DNA from: Eledone cirrhosa
Taxonomy: Eukaryota
Direction: 5' to 3'
NCBI GenBank assembly: GCA_964016885.1
Contig: OZ024740.1
Coordinates: forward strand, 391,406,001-391,470,000
Length of the DNA: 64,000 nt
The notes beneath the pieces were generated by a model that made no database searches, was not told where the DNA came from, and worked only from the letters and a program-made list of their open reading frames with translations. Both the position numbers and the translations under genes were made by a program. Shown piece by piece: positions 24,971 through 44,713 of this stretch. Position 1 is the stretch's first letter. Every line of letters starts with the position of its first letter.

Positions 24971-24996
24971 ATATTAGAAGAAGAAGAAGAAGAAGA

Positions 24997-25039
<43 letters not shown>

Positions 25040-25041
<2 letters not shown>

Positions 25042-25839
25042 TCGGGCCGGGGCCTATGGACAACTTCCAGAAATCCCTGGCCTGGCAGTGCTACCGGGGT
25101 GCTTTGCCAGTTCGGGATAAACTTTACAGGCATGGAGGTGCCGTCAGCCGGGCATGTCCGAGATGCGCGCAGGGCGACGAAACCGTCCTGCACGCACTCG
25201 TCCAGTGTCCGAGCATTGCTGACTTGTGGGTTTATGTCGAACACCTGCTGTCACGTGTAGGACGGATCCGGCTATCATCTGAGTCCATCGTGAGGATTGC
25301 CCCGCCCTCTTCCTTTAGCCGGGAAGGGCAGGCAGTTTTTATCTGTCTGGTGGCCATGGCGAAAGAGATAGTATGGTGGACACGTTTGAAAGGGCTGAAG
25401 ACGAGCACTTACCTCTTCGGTGATGCCCTGATTAACTTTTTCAAATTTCATCTGAAAAGGAAAATCAGGGTAGAGAGGGAAGTGCTCTCTTCCCAGCATT
25501 TTGTTGAAAGATGGGTGAGAGAAGCAAGTATGGCCCGAATGAATGGGCCTTCTCTGAGTATGTGTCTGTAAATTAAGGGTGGAAAACTGGGAGAGGGCAC
25601 TTGCCCTGGTGGTCAGGGCCACTGTGGTCTTTTAATGGGCTTTCTCCACAAATGTCCCTCGGAAGATTCCCCCCTATTGGGGAATTTTTCTTTGTTATTT
25701 TATTTCATCCTCTGTTTTTTTTACACGCAGAAATGCCCATTTGTACCGTCCTGAATTGTCCTGTACTGTCCTTAATGTCTACTTTATGTGAACCCTTGTG
25801 GTTAATAAAGAAAACATTATTATTATTATTATTATTATT
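25040..25839 (+). mobile_element. 5'-truncated L1/Tx1-type element T0, first unit of the (ATT)n array
   Basis: ORF 25056-25571 equals the last 171 aa of ORF2; 3'UTR, AATAAA and (ATT)8. Confidence 0.95.
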
Positions 25840-26317
25840 GGCGACCTACGTAGGAAATCGTATTATCGTGAGCTCCGCAAAGGTTTGTTATTTCCGTTTG
25901 TTTAAAAATTGCCATTTATGGAAAATTTTATTGTAAACTGTTTATAAGCACACATACATTGTTTTCCGAAAAGGACACCCAAAAAGATTGGGGCCTTGTG
26001 CCCAAAATTTTAACTTTTATTATTATCCAAAAATTTCTTTGAAAAAAAATGGCTAATTCCCCTCTGCACGAAGCAGCTGAAAGCCTTCCTCACAAAATAA
26101 CACCTCACACCGACACCACCATTGTAAATGTTACTACGTTTGCCAACACAAAAAAAAATATAAGCAGTAGCAATATTTTAAATTTGTCTCAGGCAGACAT
26201 TCATTTCCCGCCATTACCAATGACTCCACCACCACCACCACCGCGACAACCACCACCACCACCACCGCGACAACAGAAACAAAAGAAGAAAAAAATAAAT
26301 TAACTCGTGACGTCGAA

Positions 26318-28015
26318 ATGAAATCAAGCAAAATGGACTCTTCCCCACCAAAGACGACTGACGTCACAACCACCACAACTGAAAATAAAATTAATATTAA
26401 CGATAGCAACAACAACAACAATGACATTATAAAACCGACCCTCAGTTTCGCCATCGTAGCAAAACAATTCGAAGCGTTCACGGTAACCCAAGAAGATTTA
26501 GAAAATGCCAAACAAATGGTAAAAAAAGATGGGTACAGGGTCAGCCTCACCCCCCCACCTAATAAAATGGAGCATCGGCGCCTGTGCACCGTGTCGTATA
26601 GAACAATAAATGTAAAATCGCGCCGAGTGGAACGGGCATCCGAGTCCCAAATCCAAAAAGCTTTGGGACATGTGTGGGCAAGAAAAACCCACATCAGACG
26701 TGGGCAAAAGTATGGAACCGTGGATGTGTTCTTTGAAACACCAGAGGAGGCTAGAGAACACTCCATGGCCCCATTAAAAAATGACGACCTCACACTCGTC
26801 CCAAGCTATTGTGGCCAGAGACTCGTAAAGATCAGGGTGACCCACGTTCCACCGGCCATCGAAATTCCCTGGCTAATAGCGGCTGTCCTCACCGGCATCG
26901 AAGCCAACACGAAAATAATAGCAGTAGCAAAAGAAAAGCAGGAAAACTGGTCCGGATCTGGGATGGAGCTCCTGATCCAAGCGGACCAAAAAAGCATTGA
27001 GGAGATCCCAGAGGTAATAGACCTCACTGACGGCAGCCACCTCACGGTAATTGTCGAGGGCAGAAGACCTAGGTGTGTCGTTTGTGGTGAAGGAACCCAC
27101 CTAAGGGCTTTCTGCCCTCAGGCTAAAAGGTTGAGGCCACCTCTCCTACCCACCCCAGTGACAAAACCATCAACACCACCAGTAGCAGAGATGGCAGCAA
27201 CAACTGTAGCAGCAACAACAGAAGCAACTATAACAGCAACAACCCCAGCAACAGTAGCAAAACCAACACCACTACCACCACCAGCAAAACCAACACCACC
27301 ACCACCCAACGCTTCAGAACTAGCACCAGCGCCTACACCATCCACCACACCACAACCAAAACTAACGGCTGTGGAGGATTTTCCACTCCCCGGCCTATCA
27401 CAACTGGAGACAGATTGTGACGACGAGGAGTGGGAAACGATATCCGGAAAAAAAAAAAGAAACCAAAAAAGAAAAAATTCTCTTCCTTCCCCCTCCAAAA
27501 ACAAAATACAGAGGGAAACAAATAAACTAAGAAACAAAAAAGTTAGGACAGATATGCCACCATCCACACCAGCATCACCAACCCCATCAACCCAAACACC
27601 AACACCATCACCATCATTATCCCCAGCACCACCATCACCTACACCACAAAAGTCACCAAAATTCGAAACAGAAACAAACCCACAACAAACGCAAACAAAA
27701 CAAAACAACCAAAACGATATACACTACACAGCATTAAATTTGAACAACAAGCAATTATTACACTACATCCAACACAACACCAGCATCACAGAAAAAGACT
27801 ACACAACAACCCCAAAATTCACACCACCTCCACACATACAAATCACTCGCATCACACAGAAAACGTACATGACACTAAAACAAAAATTCCCCAAAGACAT
27901 CGGAGACTTCCGACAAGCACTCTCCAGGAGGATTTATAAGGACATCCTTCCTGAGGAGGCCACAAGCAGTGAAAAGGATGGAAAAGCCGTCCTTCCCCTA
28001 CGAGAAGTAAGGTAA
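26318..28015 (+). CDS. ORF1 protein type A (gag-like, single CCHC knuckle, Pro/Thr-rich); true start probably ATG 26049, separated by a frameshift
   Basis: CVVCGEGTHLRAFC = CX2CX4HX4C; relative to A2, 16 nt (gcaggtgttaaagcct) are missing near 26225. Confidence 0.85.
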   Translation: MKSSKMDSSPPKTTDVTTTTTENKININDSNNNNNDIIKPTLSFAIVAKQFEAFTVTQEDLENAKQMVKKDGYRVSLTPPPNKMEHRRLCTVSYRTINVKSRRVERASESQIQKALGHVWARKTHIRRGQKYGTVDVFFETPEEAREHSMAPLKNDDLTLVPSYCGQRLVKIRVTHVPPAIEIPWLIAAVLTGIEANTKIIAVAKEKQENWSGSGMELLIQADQKSIEEIPEVIDLTDGSHLTVIVEGRRPRCVVCGEGTHLRAFCPQAKRLRPPLLPTPVTKPSTPPVAEMAATTVAATTEATITATTPATVAKPTPLPPPAKPTPPPPNASELAPAPTPSTTPQPKLTAVEDFPLPGLSQLETDCDDEEWETISGKKKRNQKRKNSLPSPSKNKIQRETNKLRNKKVRTDMPPSTPASPTPSTQTPTPSPSLSPAPPSPTPQKSPKFETETNPQQTQTKQNNQNDIHYTALNLNNKQLLHYIQHNTSITEKDYTTTPKFTPPPHIQITRITQKTYMTLKQKFPKDIGDFRQALSRRIYKDILPEEATSSEKDGKAVLPLREVR

Positions 28016-28049
28016 GTGGTCTTTCCCATCTTTTCCACTCCTTTTCAAC

Positions 28050-31000
28050 ATGACCTCACTCAGAATAGGCAGCATAAATGCGCGTGGCTTGGGGTCGTCA
28101 TGGAAGCAGGGCCACCAGCTCAACGACCTCAGGTCACTAAACATAGATGTAGTGGCCATCAGCGAGACCAGAATCTCCGAAGCACAGGCTTTCGCACCGA
28201 TCTTCGGCGGCTACGATGTGTACGCATCTCCCAGCCGTCCGGGATCGGGGGGAGGAGTTGCTGTGCTTTTTCGGAGAGTTTTGGATCTTGCCATACGGGC
28301 CATCTTCCTGGACCCAGAAGGTAAGCTGGTGGTGCTGGACGTGACCAGCGGAGACGGGCAAGCTTTCAGGTTAGTGGCCGTCTATGCCCCGACAGGAGCA
28401 GGGCGGCCTGATTTCTTCCGGCGTCTGGAGACCTTTCTTGGAACGTCCCGCTCTTTAGTGTTAGTGGGCGACTGGAACGGGATCTTAGATGCACGCTGGG
28501 ATTGTGTGGGATTAGTGGATAGGGAAGGAGGGTGCAAGAGTCTCACCAACCTGCTCAGACGTTTTGAACTGTCTGACAGGTACCGAATGGATTTCCCGAA
28601 TGTACCAATGTGGACTTGGACAAATCGCATAGGGTCATCCAGATCATATCTAGATAGAGTATTTTGTAGGGAAATAGATAGGTCTAGCATAGGCTGTCCA
28701 CAATTCAAGATAGTCAGCTACACGGACCACAAATTCGTGATCTGTGTGCTTGACTTAGATAGGCTTCATAGACGAGGACCCGGCTACTGGAAGCTAAACG
28801 CGTCCTTACCAGCGCGCAAGGCCTACAGAGACCGGATTAGCGAACTAGTTAAGCGGGCGTTGACGGGGGCCATCGTCAACAACAAGTGGTGGTTTGCTCT
28901 GAAAAGAGCAATTAGAATAGAGTCCATTAGGTTTAGTAAGACTTTAGCAATAGAAAAAAATAGAGCAGAGGGAGAATTAGTTAGAAAATTAGATGAGGCG
29001 CTTAGCAAAGGCATCGCGACCGACGTACTTGCGGCGAAATTGGCCCTTGACCAATTCTTCAATGCAAAGCACGAAGGCTGCGTTGTCAGAGCTAGGGTGC
29101 GTGCTCTCAGACACGAGGGGACGAAAGCCGTTCAATGGGCCCGAGTGGCGGAGGCGCGTCGTGGCAACAAAGCCACGATCGGGTCTTTGGTGGACCACGA
29201 CGGGCGCATGCTACTCGATCCCGGGCAAATGTGTGAAGCTTTTCAGCGACACTTCGCTCAACTGTTCGGGGGCAGTGGCGGGCCGGATCGAGGGATGGAC
29301 TTTAGTGTCTACCTCGACGGACTGCCGCGGCTTTCGGCCACTGAGGCGGAGTGTTGCGAAAAGCCGATAACAACCGCTGAAGTACGGGATGCAATGACTA
29401 GTTGCACAAGGGGCAAATCGCCTGGTTTGGATGGTCTGCCCTATGAACTTTACGTACAAATGCCAAACTTGTTCGGAGGCCTCTTGGCGGACGTCTACTG
29501 CAACTGGCAACAGAACGGGAGAATTCCCAGCTCTGTGAGCCGAGGAGCGGTGGCGCTGCTGAGAAAGGATCCGAACAAGGGGGATAACATAGATAATTTT
29601 AGGCCCATAACTCTGCTAAACACAGAGTTCAAGATTTTGGCCAAGGTGCTAGCAAAGAGGTTGGCGCTTGTCGTTGGTGGTCTGGTGGGAGAGGCACAGA
29701 CATGCGCCATTCCCGACAGATCCATCCACGACAACCTCCACCTCATGCGATACATCGTAGCGAGGGTAGCTAGGGAACCTGGCACGGGTGGGTCTTTGAT
29801 CAATTTAGATCAGTCGAAAGCCTTCGATAGGGTCGACCATCGTTACCTAGCGGCAGTCCTGAGGGCGGCTGGCTTTGGGCCCGTCTTCAGAGGCTGGATC
29901 GCTGCCATGCACAGCGACATCTGCTCTGTAGTGAGAGTGAACGGTCACCTTTCGGAACCGTTTAACATCATGCGCTCGGTCCGCCAAGGATGTCCCCTCT
30001 CGTCCCTATTGTACGTATTGACTCTCGAGCCATTACTGCACAAACTGGAGACGTTGAGGGGGGTCCCGCGCGAACTAGGATGCGGAAGATCCGTGTCAGC
30101 ATATGCCGACGATGTCACCGTAGTGGTGTCGAGCGCCAAACACATCGAGGCGATCGGCACTACACTAAGAGAATACGAAGAGGTGACAGGAGCAATGATC
30201 AACCAGGAAAAGTCAGTGGGCCTGCAGCTCGGCACCTGGAGAGGCAGGTCCATGCCGTCCAACAGCGTCGTCGGGCGCTGGACGGACGGACCGGTTAAAT
30301 TGCTAGGGGTCTGGTTCGGTCCAGACCTCCAGACGGACAAAAACTGGGACGAGGTGACGAGCAGGGTGGCTTCTCTCACCCAGAAATGGGCCGAGAGGAA
30401 GCTATCCCTGAAAGGTCGAGCGGAGGTGGCGAATGTGTACATCGCATCCGTCATCTACTACCGCCTGACCGTCGTACCTTGTCCTAAGCCCCGCCTGACT
30501 GCGCTGGAGCGTTTGCTCTTTCGCTTCTTGTGGAAGGGACGCGCTCCGATGGTCAGGTGGTCCATCTGCTGTCAACACCCGCTACGTGGAGGGCTGGGCA
30601 TGCCGTGGCTGATGATGCGCAGACACGCGCTCAGGCTACGACATCTCCACCTCTTCCTCGACGGTGATCAGGTGTGGTCGCCGTTTGCAAGACACGTTTT
30701 TCCCCAGCTCGTCTCCTTGACGGAGCTGCAGTCCTGGGTCAAGCGAAGACCGAGAGGGAGCGCTTGGAGACTGGAATGTCTTCAGGCGCTCACAGCCCTC
30801 GACCAATCGGGCAATGTGATCGGTGGAAACGCCACCTTGGCGTTCTATAGGGGATTAGTGGAGGGGAAGAGCGACGACGTACTTGGAGAAACTCTAGGCG
30901 TCGACGAAAATCAACTAGCCAATCTCTTCGGAAGGACTTTCGGGCCGGGGCCTATGGACAACTTCCAGAAATCCCTGGCCTGGCAGTGCTACCGAGGAGC

Positions 31001-31469
31001 TTTGCCAGTTCGGGATAAACTCTACAGGCATGGAGGTGCCGTCAGCCGGGCATGTCCGAGATGCGCGCAGGGCGACGAAACCGTCCTGCACGCACTCGTC
31101 CAGTGTCCGAGCATTGCTGATTTGTGGGTTTATGTCGAACACCTGCTGTCACGTGTAGGACCTATCCAGCTATCAGCTGGGTCCATCGTGAGGATTGCCC
31201 CGCCCCCTTCCTTTAGCCTGGAAGGGCAGGCAGTTTTTATCTGTCTGGTGGCCATGGCGAAAGAGATAGTATGGTGGACACGTTTGAAAGGGCTGAAGAC
31301 GAGCACTTACCTCTTCGGTGATGCCCTGATTAACTTTTTCAAATTTCATTTGAAAAGGAAAATCAGGGTAGAGAGGGAAGTGCTCTCTTCCCAGCATTTT
31401 GTTGAAAGATGGGTGAGAGAAGCAAGTATGGACCGAATGAATGGGCCTTCTCTGAGTATGTGTCTGTAA
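28050..31469 (+). CDS. ORF2 polyprotein: APE endonuclease, reverse transcriptase, C-terminal CCHC; intact, 1139 aa
   Basis: SINARGL, ISET, GDWN, YLDR, TDH (APE); PGYWKLN, KSPGLDG, FRPITLLN, DQSKAFD, QGCPLS, YADD (RT); CPRC-X8-H-X4-C. Confidence 0.97.
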   Translation: MTSLRIGSINARGLGSSWKQGHQLNDLRSLNIDVVAISETRISEAQAFAPIFGGYDVYASPSRPGSGGGVAVLFRRVLDLAIRAIFLDPEGKLVVLDVTSGDGQAFRLVAVYAPTGAGRPDFFRRLETFLGTSRSLVLVGDWNGILDARWDCVGLVDREGGCKSLTNLLRRFELSDRYRMDFPNVPMWTWTNRIGSSRSYLDRVFCREIDRSSIGCPQFKIVSYTDHKFVICVLDLDRLHRRGPGYWKLNASLPARKAYRDRISELVKRALTGAIVNNKWWFALKRAIRIESIRFSKTLAIEKNRAEGELVRKLDEALSKGIATDVLAAKLALDQFFNAKHEGCVVRARVRALRHEGTKAVQWARVAEARRGNKATIGSLVDHDGRMLLDPGQMCEAFQRHFAQLFGGSGGPDRGMDFSVYLDGLPRLSATEAECCEKPITTAEVRDAMTSCTRGKSPGLDGLPYELYVQMPNLFGGLLADVYCNWQQNGRIPSSVSRGAVALLRKDPNKGDNIDNFRPITLLNTEFKILAKVLAKRLALVVGGLVGEAQTCAIPDRSIHDNLHLMRYIVARVAREPGTGGSLINLDQSKAFDRVDHRYLAAVLRAAGFGPVFRGWIAAMHSDICSVVRVNGHLSEPFNIMRSVRQGCPLSSLLYVLTLEPLLHKLETLRGVPRELGCGRSVSAYADDVTVVVSSAKHIEAIGTTLREYEEVTGAMINQEKSVGLQLGTWRGRSMPSNSVVGRWTDGPVKLLGVWFGPDLQTDKNWDEVTSRVASLTQKWAERKLSLKGRAEVANVYIASVIYYRLTVVPCPKPRLTALERLLFRFLWKGRAPMVRWSICCQHPLRGGLGMPWLMMRRHALRLRHLHLFLDGDQVWSPFARHVFPQLVSLTELQSWVKRRPRGSAWRLECLQALTALDQSGNVIGGNATLAFYRGLVEGKSDDVLGETLGVDENQLANLFGRTFGPGPMDNFQKSLAWQCYRGALPVRDKLYRHGGAVSRACPRCAQGDETVLHALVQCPSIADLWVYVEHLLSRVGPIQLSAGSIVRIAPPPSFSLEGQAVFICLVAMAKEIVWWTRLKGLKTSTYLFGDALINFFKFHLKRKIRVEREVLSSQHFVERWVREASMDRMNGPSLSMCL

Positions 31470-31711
31470 ATTAAAGGTGGAAAACTGGGAGAGGGCACTT
31501 GCCCTGGTGGTCAGAGCCACTGTGGTCTTTTAATGGGCTTTCTCCACAAATGTCCCTTGGAAGTCTCCCCCCTATTGGGGAATTTTTCTTTGTTATTTTA
31601 TTTCAACCTCTGTTTTTTTACACGCAGAAATGCCCATTTGTACCGTCCTGTATTGTCCTGTACTGTCCTTAATGTCTACTTTATGTGAACCCTTGTGGTT
31701 AATAAAGAAAA

Positions 31712-31742
<31 letters not shown>

Positions 31743-31958
31743 GAATGCCATGGTTGACGGAGGCTCGGCTCTGTAAGGTATAGTAATTTTTAACCGTTAA
31801 AACAATTGTAAATTGTTTAAAACTTGAACCAAATTGTTGATAAAGACACCCTCCTCCTCGTGAGAGGGGTCTTTCTGTCCGTTATTTGGCCCTTCGGGGT
31901 TAAATAACCAGTTATTGGGGTTTTGTACCCAAAATTTCATTTTAAACAAAAAAACAAC

Positions 31959-34055
31959 ATGGCTACGAAAAAGAAATTTCATACGTCACTCCCACTCATT
32001 CCGTCTTCTTCTTCCTCAATCATCACTACACCAGAGAGAAGATTGTCTCTCTCCCTCCCTTCTTTAAATGTGTCTCTCTCCCTCCCTTCTCTTTTGCAAG
32101 TGACGAAAGAAAAGAAAAATCTCGTGCAAAGCGTGCAAGGTTTCTCCACGACGACGACGACAGCGACGAAACAGGTGTGCGGGAAATACGAAAACCCAGT
32201 TCATTCGTCTGACGTCAGGAATAATAGCAGTAACAGCCGTAATAACAACAGCAACAGTGACAATGAAAACAACAGTAGCAGCCGCAACAGCATCACCAGC
32301 AGCATAAACAACAACAGCATTAGCAGCAGCAACACCAACAACAACCACAGCAACAGCGGCGGAGGCAGTAGTCGTAGTACCTGCAGCAACAACAAAAGTA
32401 CCAGCAGCTCTGACGACAACAACAACAGCAGAGAAAAACCAATCTCATTTGCAGGTATTGCGAAAAACTTGGAAACAATCCTCATAACAAATGAGGAATT
32501 AGAGGAAGCGAAGAAGATGGTGACAAAGAACGGACACCGAGCAATCTGCAAGGCAGCGGAAAAAATTTTCGAAACCCAAGAGCACTGTACGGTCACGTAC
32601 CGTACAGTAAGTACAAAATCCCGTAGGGTGGAAAGAGCCACAGAGGCCCAAATACAAAAAGCCTTGGGGTCTGTGTGGCAGCGGAAAACGCACATCACCC
32701 GAGGCAAAAAATATGCCACCGTAGACGTACTTTTTGCCACACCCCAGGAGGCAAAGGCCCAATCAGTAGTGACCCTAAGGAGCGAGGAAATGGTGTTGGT
32801 GCCCTCCTACTGCGGGCAAAAAATTGTGAGGGTCAAACTGACCCACGTCCCCCCCGGAATGACCCCTTCTTGGCTGGCCGCGTCTGTCCTCGTCGGAATC
32901 GAGGACAAAACAACTGTACTGCAAGTACAGAAAAAAGTAAGAGAAGATTGGGTCGGCTCCTCCATTGAGATGCTAATCCAAACCAACCAGGAGTGCATCG
33001 AAGCTATCCCGGATGTGATAGACTTCGATAACGGCACTCAACTGCCCATAAGTGTTGAGGGCAAACGCCCGAAATGCTTTCGCTGTGGATCGAAGACTCA
33101 CCTCAGGGCCTTCTGCAACGAGAAGACCCTGAGAAAGGAGAAAACCCCCCTCCTTCCGAATCCGGCTCCACGGCTACCAGCAACAGGACAAGCGGCAACC
33201 AGGAACGATAGGCCCGTGGCACCCATACCCACTCCACGGAAATCAAAAACAGCAGCAGCAGTGGAAATACTAACAACAACAACAGCAATACCAAATGCAG
33301 CTGCAACAGAGACTCCAGTGCAAACATCACCAACAACAACAAGTGAAAGAGTGGAGCTGGTACCCCTCCCCGACCTCACAGAATCAGACATGGAGTGTGA
33401 GGTGGGAGAGAGATGGCAAAAGGTCGTAAGAAGGCACAAACGCAGAAGCAGCGCATCGTCGCCTTTGAAAAGGGAGGAAAGAAATGAGAAAAGGGTAAAG
33501 TCTACTGCAAAGAGACCCACAGCAGCAACAACACCAACACCATCACCACCCACACTAGGACCACCATCACCACCGGCGACAACCCCACCGCCAACAACAC
33601 CTTCAACACCACCACCACAAGCACCAACATCGCAAACACAACAACAAAACACACACACCCAGCAACAACGACAAGAAAATAGCAGAACCACACCCCACCC
33701 CCAGAAAAACAAATGCACGGCAATAAATACACACAACAAGAAACTAATGACTTACATAATTGAACACACAGACATTTCACAACAGGACTACATAATACCA
33801 GCACCAATCAAAACGCCAACTAACATAAGACTGCTAAAAATAGCACAGAAACAATACACAAACATTAAAACGAAATTCCCCAACGCAGTTGGTGATTTCA
33901 GGGACCTAGGAGGAACCATCAATCGAAGAGTATATTCAGACATTCTCTTAGAAGAGCCGACGACCAGCCGAAGGGACGATTCAACGGTCCCTTCACCAGA
34001 CGATCAAGTGAAAAGGGATGTAAAAACCATCCCTCCTCTACCAAAAGTACGGTAA
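31959..34055 (+). CDS. ORF1 protein type B, intact, 698 aa from the first ATG
   Basis: CFRCGSKTHLRAFC knuckle; core colinear with type A (KSRRVERA.E.QIQKALG.VW.RKTHI, LVPSYCGQ); Ser/Asn-rich N-terminus. Confidence 0.9.
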   Translation: MATKKKFHTSLPLIPSSSSSIITTPERRLSLSLPSLNVSLSLPSLLQVTKEKKNLVQSVQGFSTTTTTATKQVCGKYENPVHSSDVRNNSSNSRNNNSNSDNENNSSSRNSITSSINNNSISSSNTNNNHSNSGGGSSRSTCSNNKSTSSSDDNNNSREKPISFAGIAKNLETILITNEELEEAKKMVTKNGHRAICKAAEKIFETQEHCTVTYRTVSTKSRRVERATEAQIQKALGSVWQRKTHITRGKKYATVDVLFATPQEAKAQSVVTLRSEEMVLVPSYCGQKIVRVKLTHVPPGMTPSWLAASVLVGIEDKTTVLQVQKKVREDWVGSSIEMLIQTNQECIEAIPDVIDFDNGTQLPISVEGKRPKCFRCGSKTHLRAFCNEKTLRKEKTPLLPNPAPRLPATGQAATRNDRPVAPIPTPRKSKTAAAVEILTTTTAIPNAAATETPVQTSPTTTSERVELVPLPDLTESDMECEVGERWQKVVRRHKRRSSASSPLKREERNEKRVKSTAKRPTAATTPTPSPPTLGPPSPPATTPPPTTPSTPPPQAPTSQTQQQNTHTQQQRQENSRTTPHPQKNKCTAINTHNKKLMTYIIEHTDISQQDYIIPAPIKTPTNIRLLKIAQKQYTNIKTKFPNAVGDFRDLGGTINRRVYSDILLEEPTTSRRDDSTVPSPDDQVKRDVKTIPPLPKVR

Positions 34056-34090
34056 GTGGTCTTTCCCATCTTTTCCACTCTATTTTAAAC

Positions 34091-37000
34091 ATGACCTCAC
34101 TCAGAATAGGCAGCATAAATGCGCGTGGCTTGGGGTCGTCATGGAAGCAGGGTCACCTGCTCAACGACCTCAGGTCACTAAACATAGATGTAGTGGCCAT
34201 CAGCGAGACCAGAATCTCCGAAGCACGGGCCTTCGCACCGATCTTCGGCGGCTACGATGTGTACGCATCTCCCAGCCGTCCTGGGTCGGCTGGAGGAGTT
34301 GCTGTGCTTTTTCGGAGAGGTTTGGATCTCGCCATACGGGCCATCTTCCTGGACCCAGAGGGTAAGCTGGTGGTGCTGGACGTGACCAGCGGAGACGGGC
34401 AAGCTTTCAGGCTAGTGGCCGTCTATGCCCCGACAGGAGCAGGGCGGCCTGATTTCTTCCGGCGTCTGGAGACCTTTCTTGGAACGTCCCGCTCTTTAGT
34501 GTTAGTGGGCGACTGGAACGGGATCTTAGATGCACGCTGGGACTGTGTGGGATTAGCGGATAGGGGTGGAGGGTGCAAGAGCCTCACCAACCTGCTCAGG
34601 CGTTTTGAACTGTCTGACAGGTACCGATTGGATTTCCCGAATGTTCCAATGTGGACTTGGACAAACCGCATAGGGTCATCCAGATCATATCTAGATAGAG
34701 TATTTTGTAGGGAAATAGATAGGTCTAGCATAGGCTGTCCACAATTCAAGATAGTCAGCTACACGGACCTCAAATTCGTAATCTGTGTGCTTGACTTAGA
34801 TAGGCTTCATAGACGAGGACCCGGCTACTGGAAGCTAAACGCGTCCTTACCAGCGCGCAAGGCCTACAGAGACCGGATTAGCGAACTAGTTAAGCGGGCG
34901 TTGACGGGGGCCATCGTCAACAACAAGTGGTGGTTTGCTCTGAAAAGAGCGATTAGAATAGAATCGATTAGGTTTAGTAAGGCTTTAGCAATAGAGAAAA
35001 ATAGAGCAGAGGGAGAACTAGTTAGAAAATTAGACGAGGCGCTTAGCAAAGGCATTGCGACCGACGTGCGTGCGGCGAAATTGGCCCTTGACCAATTCTT
35101 CAATGCAAAGCACGAAGGCTGCGTTGTCAGAGCAAGGGTGCGTGCTCTCAGACACGAGGGGACGAAAGCCGTTCAATGGGCCCGAGTGGCGGAGGCGCGT
35201 CGTGGCAACAAAGCCACGATCCGGTCTTTGGTGGACCACGACGGGCGCATGCTACTCGATCCCGGGCAAATGTGTGAAGCTTTTCAGCGACACTTCGCTC
35301 AGCTGTTCGGGGGCAGCGGTGGGCCGGGTAGAGGGATGGACTTTAGTGTCTACCTCGACGGACTGCCGCGGCTCTCGGCCACTGAGGCGAAGTGTTGCGA
35401 AAAGCCGATAACAGCCGCTGAAGTAAGGGAGGCAATGACTGGCTGCACAAGGGGTAAATCGCCTGGTTTGGATGGTCTGCCCTATGAACTTTACGTACAG
35501 ATGCCAGACTTGTTCGGAGGCCTCTTGGCGGACGTCTACTGCAACTGGCAACAGAACGGGAGAATTCCCAGTTCTGTGAGCCGAGGAACGGTGGCTCTGC
35601 TGAGAAAGGATCCGAACAAGGGGGATAACATAGATAATTTCCGGCCCATAACTCTGCTAAACACAGAGTTCAAGATTTTGGCCAAGGTGCTAGCAAAGAG
35701 GTTGGCGCTTGTCGTTGGTGGTCTGGTGGGAGAGGCGCAGACATGCGTCATTCCCGACAGATCCATCCACGACAACCTCCACCTCATGCGATACATCATA
35801 GAGAGGGTAGCTAAGGAACCTGGCACGGGTGGGTCTTTGATCAATTTAGATCAGTCGAAAGCTTTCGATAGGGTCGACCATCGTTACCTAGCGGCAGTCC
35901 TGAGGGCGGCTGGCTTTGGGCCCGTCTTCAGAGGCTGGATCGCTGCCATGCACAGCGACATCTGCTCTGTAGTGAGAGTGAACGGTCACCTTTCGGAACC
36001 GTTCAACATCATGCGCTCGGTCCGCCAAGGATGTCCCCTCTCGTCCCTCTTGTACGTATTGACTCTCGAGCCATTACTGCACAAACTGGAGACGTTGAGG
36101 GGAGTCCCGCGCGAACTAGGATGCGGAAGATCCGTGTCAGCATATGCGGACGATGTCACCGTAGTGGTGTCGAACGCCAAACACATCGAGGCGATCGGCA
36201 CTACACTAAGAGAATACGAAGCGGTGACAGGAGCAATGATCAACCAGGAAAAGTCAGTGGGCCTGCAGCTCGGCACCTGGAGAGGCAGGTCCATGCCGTC
36301 CAACAGTGTCGTCGGAGGCTGGACGGACGGACCGGGTAAATTGCTAGGGGTCTGGTTCGGTCCGGACCTCCAGACGGACAAAAACTGGGACGAGGTGACG
36401 AGCAGGGTGGCTTCTCTCACCCAGAAATGGGCGGAGAGGAAGCTATCCCTGAAAGGTCGAGCGGAGGTGGCTAACGCGTACATCGCGTCTGTCATCTGCT
36501 ACCGCCTGACCGTCGTACCTTGTACTAAGCCTCGCCTGACTTCGCTGGAGCGTTTGCTCTTTCGCTTTTTGTGGAAGGGACGTGCTCCGATGGTCAGGTG
36601 GTCCATCTGTTGTCAACACCCGCTACGTGGAGGGCTGGGCATGCCGTGGCTGATGATGCGCAGGCACGCGCTCAGGCTACGACATCTCCACCTCTTCCTC
36701 GACGGTGATCAGGTGTGGTCGCCGTTTGCTAGACGCGTATTTCCCCAGCTCGTTTCCTTGACGGAGCTGCAGTCCTGGGTCAAGCGACGACCGAGAGGGA
36801 GCGCCTGGAGACTGGAATGTCTTCAGGCGCTCACAGCCCTCGACCAATCGGGCAATGTGATCGGTGGAAACTCCACCTCGGCGTTCTATAGAGGATTAGT
36901 GGAGGGGAAGAGCGAAGACGTACTTGGGGAAACTCTAGGCGTCGACGAAAATCAACTAGCCAATCTCTTCGGAAGGACTTTCGGGCCGGGGCCTATGGAC

Positions 37001-37510
37001 AACTTCCAGAAATCTCTGGCCTGGCAGTGCTACCGAGGAGCCTTGCCAGTTCGGGATAAACTCTACAGGCATGGAGGTACCGTCAGCCGGGCATGTCCGA
37101 GATGCGCGCAGGGCGACGAAACCGTCCTGCACGCACTCGTCCAGTGTCCGAGCATTGCTGACTTGTGGGTTTATGTCGAACACCTGCTGTCGCGTTTAGG
37201 ACGGATCCGGCTATCATCTGAGTCCATCGTGAGGATTGCCCCGCCCTCCTCCTTTAGCCGGGAAGGGCAGGCAGTTTTTATCTGTCTGGTGGCCATGGCG
37301 AAAGAGATAGTATGGTGGACACGTTTGAAAGGGCTGAAGACGAGCACTTACCTCTTCGGTGATGCTCTGATTGACTTTTCCAAATTTCATTTGAAAAGGA
37401 AAATCAGAGTAGAGAGGGAAGTGCTCTCTTCCCAGCATTTTGTTGAAAGATGGGTGAGAGAAGCAAGAATGGCCCGAGTGAATGGGCCTACTCTGAGTAT
37501 ATATCTGTAA
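34091..37510 (+). CDS. ORF2 polyprotein (APE-RT-CCHC), open 1139 aa, but catalytic TDH changed to TDL
   Basis: Same motifs as A1; codon 34769-34771 is CTC where A1 and A2 have CAC. Confidence 0.95.
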   Translation: MTSLRIGSINARGLGSSWKQGHLLNDLRSLNIDVVAISETRISEARAFAPIFGGYDVYASPSRPGSAGGVAVLFRRGLDLAIRAIFLDPEGKLVVLDVTSGDGQAFRLVAVYAPTGAGRPDFFRRLETFLGTSRSLVLVGDWNGILDARWDCVGLADRGGGCKSLTNLLRRFELSDRYRLDFPNVPMWTWTNRIGSSRSYLDRVFCREIDRSSIGCPQFKIVSYTDLKFVICVLDLDRLHRRGPGYWKLNASLPARKAYRDRISELVKRALTGAIVNNKWWFALKRAIRIESIRFSKALAIEKNRAEGELVRKLDEALSKGIATDVRAAKLALDQFFNAKHEGCVVRARVRALRHEGTKAVQWARVAEARRGNKATIRSLVDHDGRMLLDPGQMCEAFQRHFAQLFGGSGGPGRGMDFSVYLDGLPRLSATEAKCCEKPITAAEVREAMTGCTRGKSPGLDGLPYELYVQMPDLFGGLLADVYCNWQQNGRIPSSVSRGTVALLRKDPNKGDNIDNFRPITLLNTEFKILAKVLAKRLALVVGGLVGEAQTCVIPDRSIHDNLHLMRYIIERVAKEPGTGGSLINLDQSKAFDRVDHRYLAAVLRAAGFGPVFRGWIAAMHSDICSVVRVNGHLSEPFNIMRSVRQGCPLSSLLYVLTLEPLLHKLETLRGVPRELGCGRSVSAYADDVTVVVSNAKHIEAIGTTLREYEAVTGAMINQEKSVGLQLGTWRGRSMPSNSVVGGWTDGPGKLLGVWFGPDLQTDKNWDEVTSRVASLTQKWAERKLSLKGRAEVANAYIASVICYRLTVVPCTKPRLTSLERLLFRFLWKGRAPMVRWSICCQHPLRGGLGMPWLMMRRHALRLRHLHLFLDGDQVWSPFARRVFPQLVSLTELQSWVKRRPRGSAWRLECLQALTALDQSGNVIGGNSTSAFYRGLVEGKSEDVLGETLGVDENQLANLFGRTFGPGPMDNFQKSLAWQCYRGALPVRDKLYRHGGTVSRACPRCAQGDETVLHALVQCPSIADLWVYVEHLLSRLGRIRLSSESIVRIAPPSSFSREGQAVFICLVAMAKEIVWWTRLKGLKTSTYLFGDALIDFSKFHLKRKIRVEREVLSSQHFVERWVREARMARVNGPTLSIYL

Positions 37511-37759
37511 ATTAAAGGTGGAAAACTGGGAGAGGGCACTTGCCTTGGTGGTCAGGGTCATTGTGGCTTTTTACTGGGCTTTCTCCACAAATGTCCCTCT
37601 GAAGTCTCCCCCCTATTGGGGAATTTTTCATTGTTATTTTTTGTTACATCCTCTTTTTTTGGTTTTTTACACGCAGAAATGCCCATTTGTACCGTCCTGC
37701 ATTGTCCTGCACTGTCCTTAATGTCTACTTTATGTAAACCCTTGTGGTTAATAAAGAAA

Positions 37760-37806
<47 letters not shown>

Positions 37807-38013
37807 GGCGACCTACGTATTAAATCGTATCATCGTGAGCTCCGCAAAGGTTTGTTATTTCCGTTTGTTAAAAATTGCCATTTATGGAAAATTTTATTGT
37901 TAACTGTTTATAAGCACACATACATTGTTTTCCGAAAAGGACACCCAAAAAGATTGGGGCCTTGTGCCCAAAATTTTAACTTTTATTATTATCAAAAAAT
38001 TTCTTTGAAAGAA

Positions 38014-39971
38014 ATGGCTACTTCACCTCTGCACGAAGCAGCTGAAAGCCTTCCTCACAAAATAACACCTCACACCGACACCACCATTGTAAATGTTACT
38101 ACGTTTGCCAACACAAAAAAAATATAAGCAGTAGCAATATTTTAAATTTGTCTCAGGCAGACATTCATTTCCCGCCATTACCAATGACTGCAGGTGTTAA
38201 AGCCTCCACCACCACCACCACCACCGCGACAACCACCACCACCACCACCACGACAACAGAAACAAAAGAAGAAAAAAATAAATTAACTCGTGATGTCGAA
38301 ATGAAATCAAGCAAAATGGACTCTTCCCCACCAAAGACGACTGACGTCACCACAACCACAACTGAAACTAAAATTAATATTAACGATAGCAACAACAACA
38401 ACAATGACATTATAAAACCCCCCTCAGTTTCGCCAGAGTAGCAAAACAATTCGAAGCATTTACCGTAACTCAGGAAGATTTAGAAAATGCCGAACAAATG
38501 GTAAAGAAAGATGGGTACAGGGTCAGCCTCACCCCCCACCTAATAAAATGGAGCATCGGCACCTATGCACCGTGTCGTATAGAACAATAAATGTAAAATC
38601 GCGCCGAGTGGAACGGGCATCCGAGTCCCAAATCCAAAAAGCTAACCCACATCAGACGTGGGCAAAAGTATGGAACCGTGGACGTGTTCTTTGAAACACC
38701 AGAGGAGGCTAGAGAACACTCAATGGCACCATTAAAAAGTGACGACTTCACACTCGTCCCAAGCTATTGTGGCCAGAGACTCGTAAAGATCAGGGTGACC
38801 CACGTTCCACCGGCCATCGAAATTCCCTGGCTAATAGCGGCCGTCCTCGCCGGCATCGATGCCAACACGAAAATAATAGCAATAGCAAAAGAAAAGCAGG
38901 AAAACTGGTCCGGATCTGGGATGGAGCTCCTGATCCAAGCGAACCAAAAAAGCATTGAGGAGATCCCAGAGGTAATAGACCTCACTGACGGCAGCCACCT
39001 CACGGTAATTGTCGAGGGCAGAAGACCTAGGTGTGTCGTTTGTGGTGAAGGAACCCACCTAAGGGCTTTCTGCCCTCAGGCTAAAAGGTTGAGGCCACCT
39101 CTCCTACCCACCCCAGTGACACAACCATCAACACCACCAGTAGCAGAGATGGCAGCAACAACTGTAGCAGCAACAACAGAAGCAACTATAACAGCAACAA
39201 CCCCAGCAACAGTAGCAAAACCAACACCACCAACACCACCACCAGCAAAACCAACACCACCACCACCACCACCCAACGCTTCAGAACTAGCACCAGCGCC
39301 TACACCATCCACCACGCCACAACCAAAACTAACGGCTGTGGAGGATTTTCCACTCCCCGGCCTATCACAACTGGAGACAGATTGTGACGACGAGGAGTGG
39401 GAAACGATATCCGGAAAAAAAAAAGAAACCAAAAAAGAAAAAATTCTCTTCCTTCCCCCTCCAAAAACAAAATACAGAGGGAAACAAATAAATTAAGAAA
39501 CAAAAAAGTTAGGACAGATATGCCACCATCCACACCAGCATCACCAACCCCATCAACCCAAACACCAACACCATCACCATCATTAACCCCAACACCACCA
39601 TCACCTACACCACAAAAGTCACCAAAATGCGAAACAGAAACAAACCCACAACAAACGCAAACAACCAAAACGATACACACTACACAGCATTAAATTTGAA
39701 CAACAAGCAATTATTACACTACATCCAACACAACACCAGCATCACAGAAAAAGACTACACAACAACCCCCAAATTCACACCACCTCCACACATACAAATC
39801 ACTCGCATCACACAGAAAACGTACATGACACTAAAACAAAAATTCCACAAAGACATCGGAGACTTCCGACAAGCACTCTCCAGGAGGATTTATAATGACA
39901 TCCTTCCTGAGGAGGCCACAAGCAGTGAAAAGGATGGAAAAACCGTCCTTCCCCTACGAGAAGTAAGGTAA
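38014..39971 (+). pseudogene. Disrupted ORF1 type A
   Basis: Frameshifts near 38120, 38420, 39420 and 39660, and a deletion near 38643 relative to A1. Confidence 0.9.
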
Positions 39972-40005
39972 GTGGTCTTTCCCATCTTTTCCACTCCTTT
40001 TCAAC

Positions 40006-43000
40006 ATGACCTCACTCAGAATAGGCAGCATAAATGCGCGTGGCTTGGGGTCGTCATGGAAGCAGGGCCACCTGCTCAACGACCTCAGGTCACTAAACAT
40101 AGATGTAGTGGCCATCAGCGAGACCAGAATCTCCGAAGCACGGGCTTTCGCACCGATCTTCGGCGGCTACGATGTGTACGCATCTCCCAGCCGTCCGGGA
40201 TCGGGGGGAGGAGTTGCTGTGCTTTTTCGGAGAGGTTTGGATCTTGCCATACGGGCCATCTTCCTGGACCCAGAAGGTAAGTTGGTGGTGCTGGACGTGA
40301 CCAGCGGAGACGGGCGAGCTTTCAGGTTAGTGGCCGTCTATGCCCCGACAGGAGCAGGGCGGCCTGATTTCTTCCGGCGTCTGGAGACCTTTCTTGGAAC
40401 GTCCCGCTCTTTAGTGTTAGTGGGCGACTGGAACGGGATCTTAGATGCACGCTGGGATTGTGTGGGATTAGTGGATAGGGATGGAGAGTGCAAGAGTCTC
40501 ACCAACCTGCTCAGACGTTTTGAACTGTCTGACAGGTACCGAATGGATTTCCCGAATGTACCAATGTGGACTTGGACAAATCGCATAGGGTCATCCAGAT
40601 CATATCTAGATAGAGTATTTTGTAGGGAAATAGATAGGTCTAGCATAGGCTGTCCACAATTCAAGATAGTCAGCTACACGGACCACAAATTCGTGATCTG
40701 TGTGCTTGACTTAGATAGGCTTCATAGACGAGGACCCGGCTACTGGAAGCTAAACGCGTCCTTACCAGCGCGCAAGGCCTACAGAGACCGGATTAGCGAA
40801 CTAGTTAAGCGGGCGTTGACGGGGGCCATCGTCAACAACAAGTGGTGGTTTGCTCTGAAAAGAGCAATTAGAATAGAGTCCATTAGGTTTAGTAAGACTT
40901 TAGCAATAGAGAAAAATAGAGCAGAGGGAGAATTATTTAGAAAATTAGATGAGGCGCTTAGCAAAGGCATCACGACCGACGTACTTGCGGCGAAATTGGC
41001 CCTTGACCAATTCTTCAATGCAAAGCACGAAGGCTGCATTGTCAGAGCTAGGGTGCGTGCTCTCAGACACGAGGGGACGAAAGCCGTTCCATGGGCCCGA
41101 GTGGCGGAGGCGCGTCGTGGCAACAAAGCCACGATCCGGTCTTTGGTGGACAACGACTGGCGCATGCTACTCGATCCCGGGCAAATGTGTGAAGCTTTTC
41201 AGCGACACTTCGCTCAACTGTTCGGGGGCAGTGGCGGGCCAGATCGAGGGATGGACTTTAGTGTCTACCTCGACGGACTGCCGCGGCTTTCGGCCACTGA
41301 GGCGGAGTGTTGCGAAAAGCCGATAACAACCGCTGAAGTACGGGATGCAATGACTAGTTGCACAAGGGGTAAATCGCCTGGTTTGGATGGTCTGCCCTAT
41401 GAACTTTACGTACAAATGCCAAACTTGTTCGGAGGCCTCTTGGCGGACGTCTACTGCAACTGGCAATAGAACGGGAGAATTCCCAGCTCTGTGAGCCGAG
41501 GAGCGGTGGCGCTGCTGAGAAAGGATCCGAACAAGGGGGATAACATAGATAATTTTAGGCCCATAACTCTGCTAAACACAGAGTTCAAGATTTTGGCCAA
41601 GGTGCTAGCAAAGAGGTTGGCGCTTGTCGTTGGTGGTCTGGTGGGAGAGGCACAGACATGCGCCATTCCCGACAGATCCATCCACGACAACCTCCACCTC
41701 ATGCGATACATCGTAGAGAGGGTAGCTAGGGAACCTTGCACGGGTGGGTCTTTGATCAATTTAGATCAGTCGAAAGCCTTCGATAGGGTCGACCATCGTT
41801 ACCTAGCGGCAGTCCTGAGGGCGGCTGGCTTTGGGCCCGTCTTCAGAGGCTGGATCGCTGCCATGCACAGCGACATCTGCTCTGTAGTGAGAGTGAACGG
41901 TCACCTTTCGGAACCGTTCAACATCATGCGCTCGGTCCGCCAAGGATGTCCCCTCTCGTCCCTATTGTACGATTGACTCTCGAGCCATTACTGCACAAAC
42001 TGGAGACGTTGAGGGGGGTCCCGCGCGAACTAGGATGCGGAAGATCCGTGTCAGCATATGCGGACGATGTCACCGTAGTGGTGTCGAACGCCAAACACAT
42101 CGAGGCGATCGGCACTACACTAAGAGAATACGAAGCGGTGACAGGAGCAATGATCAACCAGGAAAAGTCAGTGGGCCTGCAGCTCGGCACCTGGAGAGGC
42201 AGGTCCATGCCGTCCAACAGCGTCGTCGGGCGCTGGACGGACGGACCGGTTAAATTGCTAGGGGTCTGGTTCGGTCCAGACCTCCAGACGGACAAAAACT
42301 GGGACGAGGTGACGAGCAGGGTGGCTTCCCTCACCCAGAAATGGGCCGAGAGGAAGCTATCCCTGAAAGGTCGAGCGGAGGTGGCTAACGCGTACATCGC
42401 ATCCGTCATCTACTACCGCCTGACCGTCGTACCTTGTCCTAAGCCCCGCCTGACTGCGCTGGAGCGTTTGCTCTTTCGCTTCTTGTGGAAGGGACGCGCT
42501 CCGATGGTCAGGCGGTCCATCTGCTGTCAACACCCGCTACGTGGAGGGCTGGGCATGCCGTGGCTGATGATGCGCAGACACGCGCTCAGGCTACGACATC
42601 TCCACCTCTTCCTCGACGGTGATCAGGTGTGGTCGCCGTTTGCGAGACACGCTTTTCCCCAGCTCGTCTACTTGACGGAGCTGCAGTCCTGCGTCAAGCG
42701 AAGACCGAGAGGGAGCGCTTGGAGACTGGAATGTCTTCAGGCGCTCACAGCCCTCGACCAATCGGGCAATGTGATCGGTGGAAACTCCACCTTGGCGTTC
42801 TATAGGGGATTAGTGGAGGGGAAGAGCGACGACGTACTTGGAGAAACTCTAGGCGTCGACGAAAATCAACTAGCCAATCTCTTCAGAAGGACTTTCGGGC
42901 CGGGGCCTATGGACAACTTCCAGAAATCCCTGGCCTGGCAGTGCTACCGAGGAGCTTTGCCAGTTCGGGATAAACTCTACAGGCATGGAGGTGCCGTCAG

Positions 43001-43424
43001 CCGGGCATGTCCGAGATGCGCGCAGGGCGACGAAACCGTCCTGCACGCACTCGTCCAGTGTCCGAGCATTGCTGACTTGTGGGTTTATGTCGAACACCTG
43101 CTGTCACGTGTAGGACGGATCCAGCTATCAGCTGAGTCCATCGTGAGGATTGTCCCGCCCCTTTCCTTTAGCCGGGAAGGGCAGGCAGTTTTTATCTGTC
43201 TGGTGGCCATGGCGAAAGAGATAGTATGGTGGACACGTTTGAAAGGGCTGAAGACGAGCACTTACCTCTTCGGTGATGCCCTGATTAACTTTTTCAAATT
43301 TCATTTGAAAAGGAAAATCAGGGTAGAGAGGGAAGTGCTCTCTTCCCAGCATTTTGTTGAAAGATGGGTGAGAGAAGCAAGTATGGACCGAATGAATGGG
43401 CCTTCTCTGAGTATGTGTCTGTAA
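40006..43424 (+). pseudogene. Disrupted ORF2
   Basis: CAG to TAG at 41467-41469; 1-nt deletion near 41972. Confidence 0.92.
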
Positions 43425-43667
43425 ATTAAAGGTGGAAAACTGGGAGAGGGCACTTGCCCTGGTGGTCAGGGCCACTGTGGTCTTTTAATGGGCTTTCTCC
43501 ACAAATGCCCCTCGGAAGTCTCCCCCCTATTGGGGAATTTTTCTTTGTTATTTTATTTCAACCTCTGTTTTTTTTACACGCAGAAATGCCCATTTGTACC
43601 GTCCTGTATTGTCCTGTACTGTCCTTAATGTCTACTTTATGTAAACCCTTGTGGTTAATAAAGAAAA

Positions 43668-43726
<59 letters not shown>

Positions 43727-44022: not shown

Positions 44023-44027
44023 ACACA

Positions 44028-44058
<31 letters not shown>

Positions 44059-44658: not shown

Positions 44659-44713
<55 letters not shown>

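Follow-up and report, generated by a model that had tools for sequence, protein, structure and literature searches.

The window considered here is a stretch of 64,000 nucleotides (nt) of the Eledone cirrhosa genome (GenBank assembly GCA_964016885.1, contig OZ024740.1, positions 391,406,001 to 391,470,000 of the forward strand). Between positions 24994 and 43725 it carries a head-to-tail array of long interspersed nuclear elements (LINEs) lying within an (ATT)n microsatellite, in which each element begins right after an (ATT)n run and ends in (ATT)n. The full-length members fall into two types, A and B, both with two open reading frames (ORF1 and ORF2) between a 5' and a 3' untranslated region (UTR). 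Our subject is element B, which is almost certainly a chimera: its 5'UTR and nearly all of its ORF1 come from a further lineage, here termed pB, while the last 46-48 bases of its ORF1, the ORF1-ORF2 spacer, ORF2 and the 3'UTR come from the A lineage. The parts of the array are listed in Table 1.

Table 1. Elements of the (ATT)n array and their parts (positions are those of the window).
Feature	Positions	Strand	Basis
(ATT)n microsatellite, insertion target at the head of the array	24994..25040	+	sequence reading
5'-truncated A-type copy, last ~800 nt and (ATT)n tail	25041..25839	+	97.4% to the A 3' end vs 94.7% to B; repeat families D8-D10, D18
Element A, full length, with (ATT)n end; almost certainly of the lineage that donated the 3' block of B	25840..31742	+	ORF1-tail junction with 3079 genomic matches
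A ORF1, frameshifted in the window copy; open remnant 26318-28015 (565 aa)	26050..28015	+	ORF list, comparison with intact copies
C-terminal tail of A ORF1, EKDGKAVLPLREVR and stop; start of the block shared by A and B	27970..28015	+	junction alignments; CAG at 27967-27969 immediately upstream
AAGGTAAGT, 5'-splice-site-like motif across the A ORF1 stop	28009..28017	+	kept in lineages A, pB, D, E and F
A ORF2, 1139 aa: APE endonuclease, reverse transcriptase, CCHC zf-RVT motif	28050..31469	+	Pfam; BLASTP against B ORF2
Element B, whole	31743..37806	+	head to tail after A
5' module of B, almost certainly of pB origin: 5'UTR 31743-31958, ORF1 from 31959 to ...GACGATCAAG	31743..34008	+	likeness to six pB copies; pB+B clade 100/100
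Chimeric junction of B	34007..34009	+	AG at 34007-34008 common to both parents; T at 34009 is the first certain A-type base
Second C-terminal tail of B ORF1, VKRDVKTIPPLPKVR and stop, almost certainly A-derived, after B's own pB/D-like tail (RRDDSTVPSPDDQ)	34009..34055	+	junction alignments
ORF1-ORF2 spacer of B, within the shared block	34056..34090	+	A/B alignment
B ORF2, 1139 aa, almost certainly of A-lineage origin	34091..37510	+	dS 0.09 to A vs 0.56-0.59 to pB
B 3'UTR and (ATT)n tail, within the shared block	37511..37806	+	A/B alignment
Element C, A-type copy, frameshifts in both ORFs, last of the array, then (AGT)n	37807..43725	+	97.3% to A over the full length

The two halves of A and B give very different measures of their relationship. 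Their ORF2 proteins are identical at 1089 of 1139 positions without a gap (BLASTP), with a synonymous divergence (dS) of 0.091 and a nonsynonymous divergence (dN) of 0.020 by the Nei-Gojobori method, whereas the ORF1 proteins agree at 165 of 400 positions (41%, E 7e-98), the codon-aligned core has 60% nucleotide identity, and the proportion of synonymous differences (pS) over its 228 codons has reached saturation (0.795, dN 0.36). Nucleotide comparison by blastn finds no similarity upstream of element position 2129 in A and 2265 in B (window 27968 and 34007), and 95.8% identity over the 3785 nt downstream. The same step is seen across 29 A-type and 29 B-type genomic copies, in which a 50-nt stretch holds 20-43 fixed differences between the types ahead of the ORF1 stop and 0-4 behind it. 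When old copies are included (A2-A4 of the A type, B2 and B3 of the B type), any two ORF2s are 91-98% alike whichever type they belong to, and the 5' modules are 77-97% alike within a type as against 46-67% between types. A sequence-only reading of this DNA had described two ORF2s of 1139 residues with a few dozen differences, ORF1 cores roughly half identical and 5'UTRs that do not align, and had proposed the precise exchange of an entire 5'UTR+ORF1 module on a common ORF2 backbone; all of this is borne out by the present data. It had further placed an abrupt return of identity at the ORF1 stop. The abruptness is real, and the A/C in AAGTA(A/C)GG that it singled out is indeed the last of the dense differences; the position is not, as the shared block begins 46-48 nt upstream of the stop (34007-34009 in B, 27968-27970 in A).

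One correction concerns the annotation of A. The window copy has suffered a frameshifting deletion of 16 nt near 26224, together with one of 6 nt, in the N-terminal low-complexity part of its ORF1. In intact A copies ORF1 starts at element position ~210 (window ~26050) and encodes 661-664 residues in five of the 20 sampled and 632 residues in a sixth; hence, part of what had been taken for the 5'UTR of A belongs to ORF1.

Neither type is confined to the window. Genomic matches to the modules were scored only for the best 40 candidates, so that the copies are sampled by their likeness to the window: for the 2264-nt 5' module of B all 40 of the best 40 among 2024 candidates match at 99-100%, and for that of A all 40 of the best 40 among 3310 match at 97-100%. 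Counted with 29-nt patterns allowing up to two mismatches, the B junction occurs 2771 times and the corresponding A sequence 3079 times in the genome, the control patterns giving no match. At all 30 B-type loci compared, the adjoining 1500 nt of ORF2 match B at ~99% and A at 95-96%, and all 30 A-type loci show the reverse. Full-length copies fetched for the two types are colinear with A or B in 39 of 40 cases (97.6-99%), those of B in 19 of 20 (98.5-98.9%) and on many contigs, and a 2370-nt contig from another data set bridges the B junction. Among 20 copies of each type, ORF1 is open in 20, ORF2 in 13 and both in 13 for B, and in eight, nine and three, respectively, for A; B is now the more intact family. 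The two also share their neighbourhoods: at least eight of 30 A loci lie behind a B-type 3' end and two of 30 B loci behind an A-type one, together at least ten of the 60 sampled copies. Runs of B junctions ~6.05 kb apart (e.g., C1:55427436-55453382) correspond to long B-B-B arrays, and A and B junctions are also found 5-6 kb apart, as at C1:1060312 and C1:1065813.

The ORF1 of B has two C-terminal tails in series. The first, ...TSRRDDSTVPSPDDQ, is colinear with the end of ORF1 in a related lineage, D (TSQRDGSTVPSPNNQGK and stop), and the second, VKRDVKTIPPLPKVR and stop, is colinear with the A end, EKDGKAVLPLREVR and stop, to which it is similar at 86-95% of nucleotides, unlike the first. As the second tail lies in the shared block, a parent was predicted with the ORF1 of B but its own native end, namely ...CCAGACGATCAAG passing directly into GTAAGTG. 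The pattern designed for this junction, GTCCCTTCACCRRACRATCAAGGTAAGTG, has 976 genomic matches, with none for the control. At 27 of 30 such loci the ORF1 side is 82-93% identical to B, and the ORF2 side is 78-86% identical to A and B but 83-93% identical to D; the other three are D-type. Six delimited full-length copies of this lineage, pB, begin at B's own 5' end directly after (ATT)n, have the native ORF1 end ...GATCAAG^GTAAGTG (^ marks the join here and below), and resemble B at 91-93% in the 5'UTR, 89-97% in ORF1 (nucleotides) and 72-87% in ORF2 and the 3'UTR, the latter two being 88-97% identical to those of lineage D. With B as the reference, dS is 0.13-0.20 to pB and ~1.55 to A in ORF1, and 0.56-0.59 to pB and 0.09 to A in ORF2. 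None of eight fetched pB copies retains an intact ORF1 or ORF2, and the lineage looks extinct. Of the other lineages that serve for comparison, all (ATT)n-specific and found among array neighbours, D, represented by one full copy (L061:2915-8947) and one partial copy, is ~82% identical to A and B in ORF2, and E and F are ~75% identical to A and B and colinear with each other (80% in ORF1, 90% in ORF2).

With both parents at hand, the join can be read almost to the base. In pB the sequence runs ...GACGATCAAG^GTAAGTGATCC, in A ...CACAAGCAG^TGAAAAGGATGG and in B ...GACGATCAAG^TGAAAAGGGATG, the window junction lying between 33999-34008 and 34009. B thus reads ...GATCAAG^TGAAAAGG..., continuing with the TGAAAAGG that in A stands right after CAG, 46 nt short of the stop. 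The join is non-homologous, with a two-nucleotide microhomology, AG, which argues against homologous crossing-over or gene conversion as its source; a 10-nt motif, AAGGTAAGTG, is present in both parents. The ORF1s of A, D, pB, E and F all end in single, colinear tails. Since the doubled tail is confined to B and both single-tailed parents exist, B is very probably the derived form. By eye, the tails of the old copies A2 and B2 differ at only two of 37 nt in the printed sequences, about the level of ORF2, and therefore the second tail belongs to the shared block and diverged later in young A and young B. A pattern search for the reciprocal junction (A tail, then pB/D spacer) gave no genomic match. 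One junction common to ~2800 copies, no reciprocal junction and no other junction from the pB donor together point to a single founding event followed by amplification.

Trees built separately from the two halves of a single 27-row alignment conflict in the manner expected of such a chimera. In the 5' tree (ORF1 part, 1595 columns), A forms a clade with 100/100 support on a stem of 0.4, pB and B form another with 100/100, and D is its sister; the B-type copies stand beside one particular pB copy (pB_L140) inside the diversity of pB, with 94/88 support, or 98/96 when B3 is left out. In the tree of ORF2 and the 3'UTR (3654 columns), A+B and pB+D each receive 100/100. In approximately unbiased (AU) tests, for which the groups were named after the trees had been seen, the ORF2 data reject a B+pB grouping (log-likelihood difference 1277, p 1e-59) and the 5' data reject A+B (difference 89, p 5e-5). 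Hence, the half-trees support the union of a pB 5' part with an A-lineage 3' part. A 49-row ORF2 tree adds a time scale. Young A and young B are each clades with 100 support, on stems of 0.008-0.013 and with tips of 0.002-0.011, and the old copies A2-A4 and B2-B3, with tips of 0.023-0.043, join in a basal polytomy. Two aspects of this tree weigh against a simple one-step history: old A2 (L065) pairs with B3 (L067) at 90-93 support on a short branch, and, as the old A and B copies form a polytomy, the ORF2 tree by itself does not nest B within A. The 3' donor may have been an A2-like sublineage, to judge from this pairing. In the master lineages the 5' module has evolved at 3-4 times the rate of ORF2, the stems in the 5' and ORF2 trees being 0.035 and 0.007-0.013 for young B, and ~0.05 and 0.011-0.013 for young A.

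The junction is already present in the old copy B2. Old B copies that have it show 2.5-4% private divergence, and the young copies lie 0.2-1% from their nodes; the event therefore predates the oldest sampled B copies and is several times older than the present bursts. The sequence-only reading had envisaged a recent exchange between A and B. On the families' own scale it is not recent, and the partners have to be redrawn, as B is itself the product of the exchange, with pB on the 5' side and the A lineage on the 3' side.

Three other accounts of the A-B relationship deserve consideration. The simplest dispenses with any exchange and supposes that the 5'UTR and ORF1 merely evolve much faster than ORF2, by positive selection or relaxed constraint. 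The longer 5' stems of the master lineages (0.035-0.05 vs 0.007-0.013) go in its direction, as does the colinear pair E and F, which is less alike in ORF1 (80%) than in ORF2 (90%). However, the synonymous sites themselves are saturated in ORF1 (pS 0.795) and at dS 0.09 in ORF2, the switch is completed within a few bases, and B is close to pB in ORF1 (dS 0.13-0.20) and far from it in ORF2 (0.56-0.59). These dS contrasts and the rejection of a common tree by the AU tests refute this account, and we allow it practically no probability. Equally negligible is the idea that B is an assembly artefact, or that its ORF2 was made similar to that of A by gene conversion between neighbours in this array, which the adjacency of A and B in the window might bring to mind. 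It is refuted by the 2771 B-junction copies across the genome, the 19 of 20 fetched B copies that are colinear at 98.5-98.9% on many contigs, the bridging 2370-nt contig of the other data set, and the separation, genome-wide, of A-linked and B-linked ORF2s into distinct young clades with 100 support. Thus, neither a lone assembly chimera nor similar dS values in ORF1 and ORF2, the two outcomes that the earlier reading had named as fatal to it, is what the genome presents. More substantial is the converse polarity, in which A is the recombinant and received the 5' module of some other lineage on the backbone of B at the same point. The 5' module of A is the most isolated of all (stem 0.4 in the 5' tree), the base of the ORF2 tree is a polytomy, and no A-type module was found on another backbone among the best 40 of 3310 candidates, these 40 all being young A copies. 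Against this, the ORF1 of A closes with one tail that is colinear with those of D, pB, E and F, a doubled tail is peculiar to B, and the second tail of B is A-type (86-95% of nucleotides), unlike the first; two joins at one and the same base would be needed, and the reciprocal junction has no match in the genome. We regard this polarity as very improbable, and retain B as the derived chimera.

The position of the join suggests how it may have been made. The break on the pB side coincides exactly with that marked in a conserved AAG^GTAAGT, and the break on the A side comes just after CAG, so that the stretch skipped in the parents would obey the GT..AG rule of introns (pB ...CAAG^GTAAGT, A ...GCAG^TGAAAAGG). 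The sequence at the ORF1 stop, AAGGTAAGT(G/A), is a near-perfect match to the U1/5'-splice-site consensus, and recurs at window 39965-39973 and at loci L061, L062, L063 and L140-L147. Among young copies AAGGTAAGT is present in 20 of 20 of the A type, and ACGGTAAGT in 19 of 19 of the B type (window ~34049-34057). The motif holds stops in several frames, and both the stop codon and the frame used within it vary among lineages A, pB, D, E and F, so it is not conserved for the sake of the protein. By analogy with general RNA biology, it may be a U1-binding site, for example one that counters premature polyadenylation of the A-rich ORF1 region. A candidate mini-intron of 52 nt, from this donor to CTCAG^A in codons 4-5 of ORF2, was considered and rejected; it would give an in-frame ORF1-ORF2 fusion in A and B but not in pB, D or F.

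We accordingly propose, as the foremost candidate though at somewhat less than an even chance, that the join depended on splice sites, the proposal being favoured by a left break exactly at a conserved donor and a right break after CAG. Transcription would have run on from a pB copy across (ATT)n and into the A copy that came next, and the donor GTAAGT at the end of the pB ORF1 would have been spliced to the A site after CAG; cis-splicing is the form envisaged here, and trans-splicing would give the same join. Neighbours of the required kind occur at locus L144, and copies of different families commonly adjoin each other. The spliced RNA would keep the promoter, ORF1 and the whole of ORF2, and could thus have copied itself, with the resulting founder amplifying into family B. 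By a rough estimate, the probability that a random break would land on the donor is at most 0.03, given the viable positions. Several observations weigh against splicing. In A the acceptor lies in a poor context, with a pyrimidine fraction of 0.40 over -45..-1 and other AGs at -14, -11 and -3. The AG microhomology suits template switching or end joining just as well, and an additional G eight bases past the join in B calls for a second change under any model. Nor do the genomic copies attest other uses of the donors: a search for the A donor followed by a non-G base gave 52 matches, nearly all of them point mutants or small deletions of GTAAGT, with three showing an unrelated continuation, and a search for the pB donor followed by A or C gave nine, all point mutants (eight of the B junction and one of the pB junction). 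Spliced copies from within one element are, however, not to be expected, because such splicing would remove ORF2. A search of sequencing runs for this sequence listed none of RNA, and the contigs of one data set, tentatively RNA, touch mostly low-complexity parts.

Two further routes lead to the same chimera. In the one, the mechanism favoured in the sequence-only reading, target-primed reverse transcription would have copied an A RNA as far as a point 46 nt short of its ORF1 stop, then jumped to a pB RNA, from which ORF1 and the 5'UTR were completed. A non-homologous join with AG microhomology is what such template switching may leave, and the two families were active at similar times, as private divergences of 0.023-0.048 in old A, old B and pB indicate. 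The form of template jumping documented for non-LTR reverse transcriptases is end-to-end, whereas both breakpoints here are internal to the RNAs. A switch guided by homology would be expected at the shared 10-nt AAGGTAAGTG, and would leave no doubled tail. The exact landing on the base before GTAAGT would moreover have to be put down to a coincidence, of the same rough probability of at most 0.03. Strand switching is among the three mechanisms proposed for mosaic mouse L1 (PMC3600994), but for B we consider it unlikely. In the other route the change would have occurred in DNA, either by a deletion of ~5.9 kb in a pB-(ATT)n-A array or by the insertion of a 5'-truncated A into the tail of a pB with loss of the upstream 3.8 kb, the product becoming a new master copy. 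Here the setting is favourable: arrays with mixed neighbours are common (at least ten of 60 sampled copies), a pB copy with an A-type copy directly behind it is found at locus L144, many copies are full length and intact (both ORFs are open in 13 of 20 B copies), such that a random pair can be functional, and the microhomology is compatible with end joining. The GT..AG coincidence is again left without a reason. DNA-level recombination was judged unlikely for mouse L1 on the ground that most copies are dead (PMC3600994), an argument that is weaker here. We hold this DNA-level route to be rather unlikely, though not so much as template switching, and keep the splice-site-dependent join as the working model.

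The elements that underwent this exchange are, in a broad sense, L1-like two-ORF non-LTR retrotransposons of the APE type. In both ORF2s (A and B, respectively) Pfam recognizes Exo_endo_phos (1e-12 and 1.4e-13), RVT_1 (1.3e-28 and 1.4e-28) and zf-RVT (~1e-7). The closest solved relative of ORF2 is the human LINE-1 ORF2p (E 1.9e-49, colinear over residues 5-855), and R2 proteins match in the reverse transcriptase domain only, with E 1.5e-21 or weaker. The assignment to L1 made in the sequence-only reading holds in this broad sense of APE, reverse transcriptase and CCHC, and does not extend to a clade. In ORF1 a C-X2-C-X4-H-X4-C motif is invariant in four of five lineages, the degraded D copy having F at the last Cys, and matches to zf-CCHC are weak (E 0.04-0.1 in Pfam and PDB profile searches). 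No RRM was matched in ORF1, nor was there any Pfam match above threshold, and an AlphaFold2 model of the ORF1 core (pLDDT 71.9) shows alternating strands and helices. In protein searches the best external match is at 78% and the rest are at 44% or less, and the ORF1 protein clusters in the Atlas are commonest in Mollusca.

Insertion into (ATT)n is nearly invariable: full-length A and B copies start right after it in 40 of 40 cases and end in it in 39 of 40, and the delimited pB copies do both in six of six. Together with the mixed arrays, this agrees with the earlier view of coexisting lineages that share one target. Dong, of the R4 clade, has a single ORF and a different endonuclease. The elements described here, by contrast, possess an N-terminal APE domain and a separate ORF1. 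The target is nonetheless the same, Dong being a (TAA)n-specific non-LTR element reported from silkworm, mosquito and a freshwater snail (PMC3812793). In their features the elements also resemble two microsatellite-specific members of the Tx1 group of APE-type LINEs, Kibi with (TC)n as its target and Koshi with (TTC)n (Kojima and Fujiwara, 2004, cited in PMC4494074 and PMC3812793), which as summarized there have two ORFs, APE, reverse transcriptase and CCHC, insert strictly into a single microsatellite and form tandem arrays; they differ in target, which is here (ATT)n, that is, (TAA)n on the other strand. The putative CCHC knuckle in ORF1 would likewise correspond to the make-up described for the Type I ORF1p of Tx1-like elements (PMC5203782).

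How LINEs came by their promoters and ORF1 parts is usually worked out from the consensus sequences of families that died long ago. In the present case hundreds to thousands of copies of the child and of each parent persist, the join can be placed to within two bases, and the doubled ORF1 tail indicates which form is derived. Mouse L1 has already provided recombinant LINE families, and B is a clean new example of this evolutionary route. In the mouse the Tf and Gf families took their 5'UTR, ORF1 and the 5' end of ORF2 from an F lineage and the rest from A_III (Sookdeo et al., 2013; PMC3600994). As there described, they parallel B in being successful families with the 5' end of one lineage on the 3' part of another that was active at a similar time, in the older age of the 5' terminus than of the 3' end, and in the conflict of trees around the breakpoint. 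B differs from that description in its breakpoint, which lies just before the ORF1 stop and not inside ORF2, in the non-homologous join with a doubled ORF1 tail, in the survival of parents and product in hundreds to thousands of copies, and in being a target-specific, arrayed element of a non-mammalian host.

If splicing was indeed involved, two other phenomena become relevant. Chimeras of L1 with host first exons at splice donor and acceptor sites, explained by trans-splicing or 5' transduction, have been put forward as a means of acquiring new 5' ends (Law and Burns, 2026; PMC13174262). As far as they are characterized in that report, they share with B the donor/acceptor signature that joins a sense-oriented 5' partner to a coding-competent LINE, and differ in that the 5' partner of B is the 5'UTR and ORF1 of another LINE, the donor is a conserved feature of the element, and splicing is inferred. 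SpIREs, the retrotransposed copies of spliced human L1 RNA (Larson et al., 2018; PMC5860796), would offer a precedent for spliced LINE RNA giving rise to heritable genomic copies. Whereas those, from what is related of them there, are spliced within one element and are dead ends, the splice proposed for B would link two elements, with the most active family as its outcome. Should the GT..AG arrangement reflect splicing, it would tie together three things that have not been connected before: arrays at a specific target, read-through transcription and a splice donor conserved within a LINE.

More generally, a whole 5'UTR+ORF1 unit could evidently be moved between ORF2 backbones ~18% apart and still give the most intact family among those sampled. 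A comparison of D with pB (L140-L147, and also L135) suggests a second such exchange. The two have ORF2 and 3'UTR in common (88-97%) and are only 45-80% alike in 5'UTR and ORF1; their 5' modules are 0.42 substitutions per site apart in the 5' tree, and D falls within the pB star in the ORF2 tree. Upstream of the junction D and pB agree at 54-77% of positions; over the initial ~300 nt of ORF2 the value is 81-87%, D being nearer there to A and B (85-94%) than to pB, and beyond about +350 it is 88-96%. The profile would place the breakpoint ~300-350 nt into ORF2, with a change in identity less sharp than at the B junction. With three types of 5' module (A, B/pB and D) on two ORF2 backbones in four combinations, the modules can aptly be called interchangeable, as the sequence-only reading had it, and in practice such elements are better classified per module than per element. 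One might go further and see the arrays as exon-shuffling machines, in which, upon read-through into the next copy, the conserved donor would splice the promoter and ORF1 onto the ORF2 of any downstream lineage and the product RNA would be a complete mobile element in its own right, with swapping recurrent (pB to B, perhaps D/pB) and the donor conserved partly for this reason; we regard this generalization as distinctly improbable. The old A-type copy A4 (L069:3794-9522, and also L062:1-3022), which is 95% identical to A over ORF2 positions 2731-3696 and 89.7% from 3753 on, may be a further mosaic.

The surroundings of the insertions offer a few additional observations. Directly upstream of the target (ATT)n, window 24765-24961 contains a 93-nt inverted repeat whose arms are 88% complementary and 11 nt apart. 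Sequence of the ATAAAGTACCAGTAATACACTGG type, similar to this inverted repeat, also flanks other copies (L076, L093), and a hairpin-forming repeat seems to be the carrier of the targeted microsatellite. Another flank, (G)TTCTTTGAGTCTCAGTCATTGATGTT..., follows the (ATT)n tail in five of 40 copies (loci L077, L086, L098, L102 and L104); the elements seem to land frequently in the (ATT)n run of another repeat family. Right behind the array, window 44000-46500 is a long imperfect field of (CA)n, (TA)n, (CATA)n and (GA)n with spurious ORFs on both strands.

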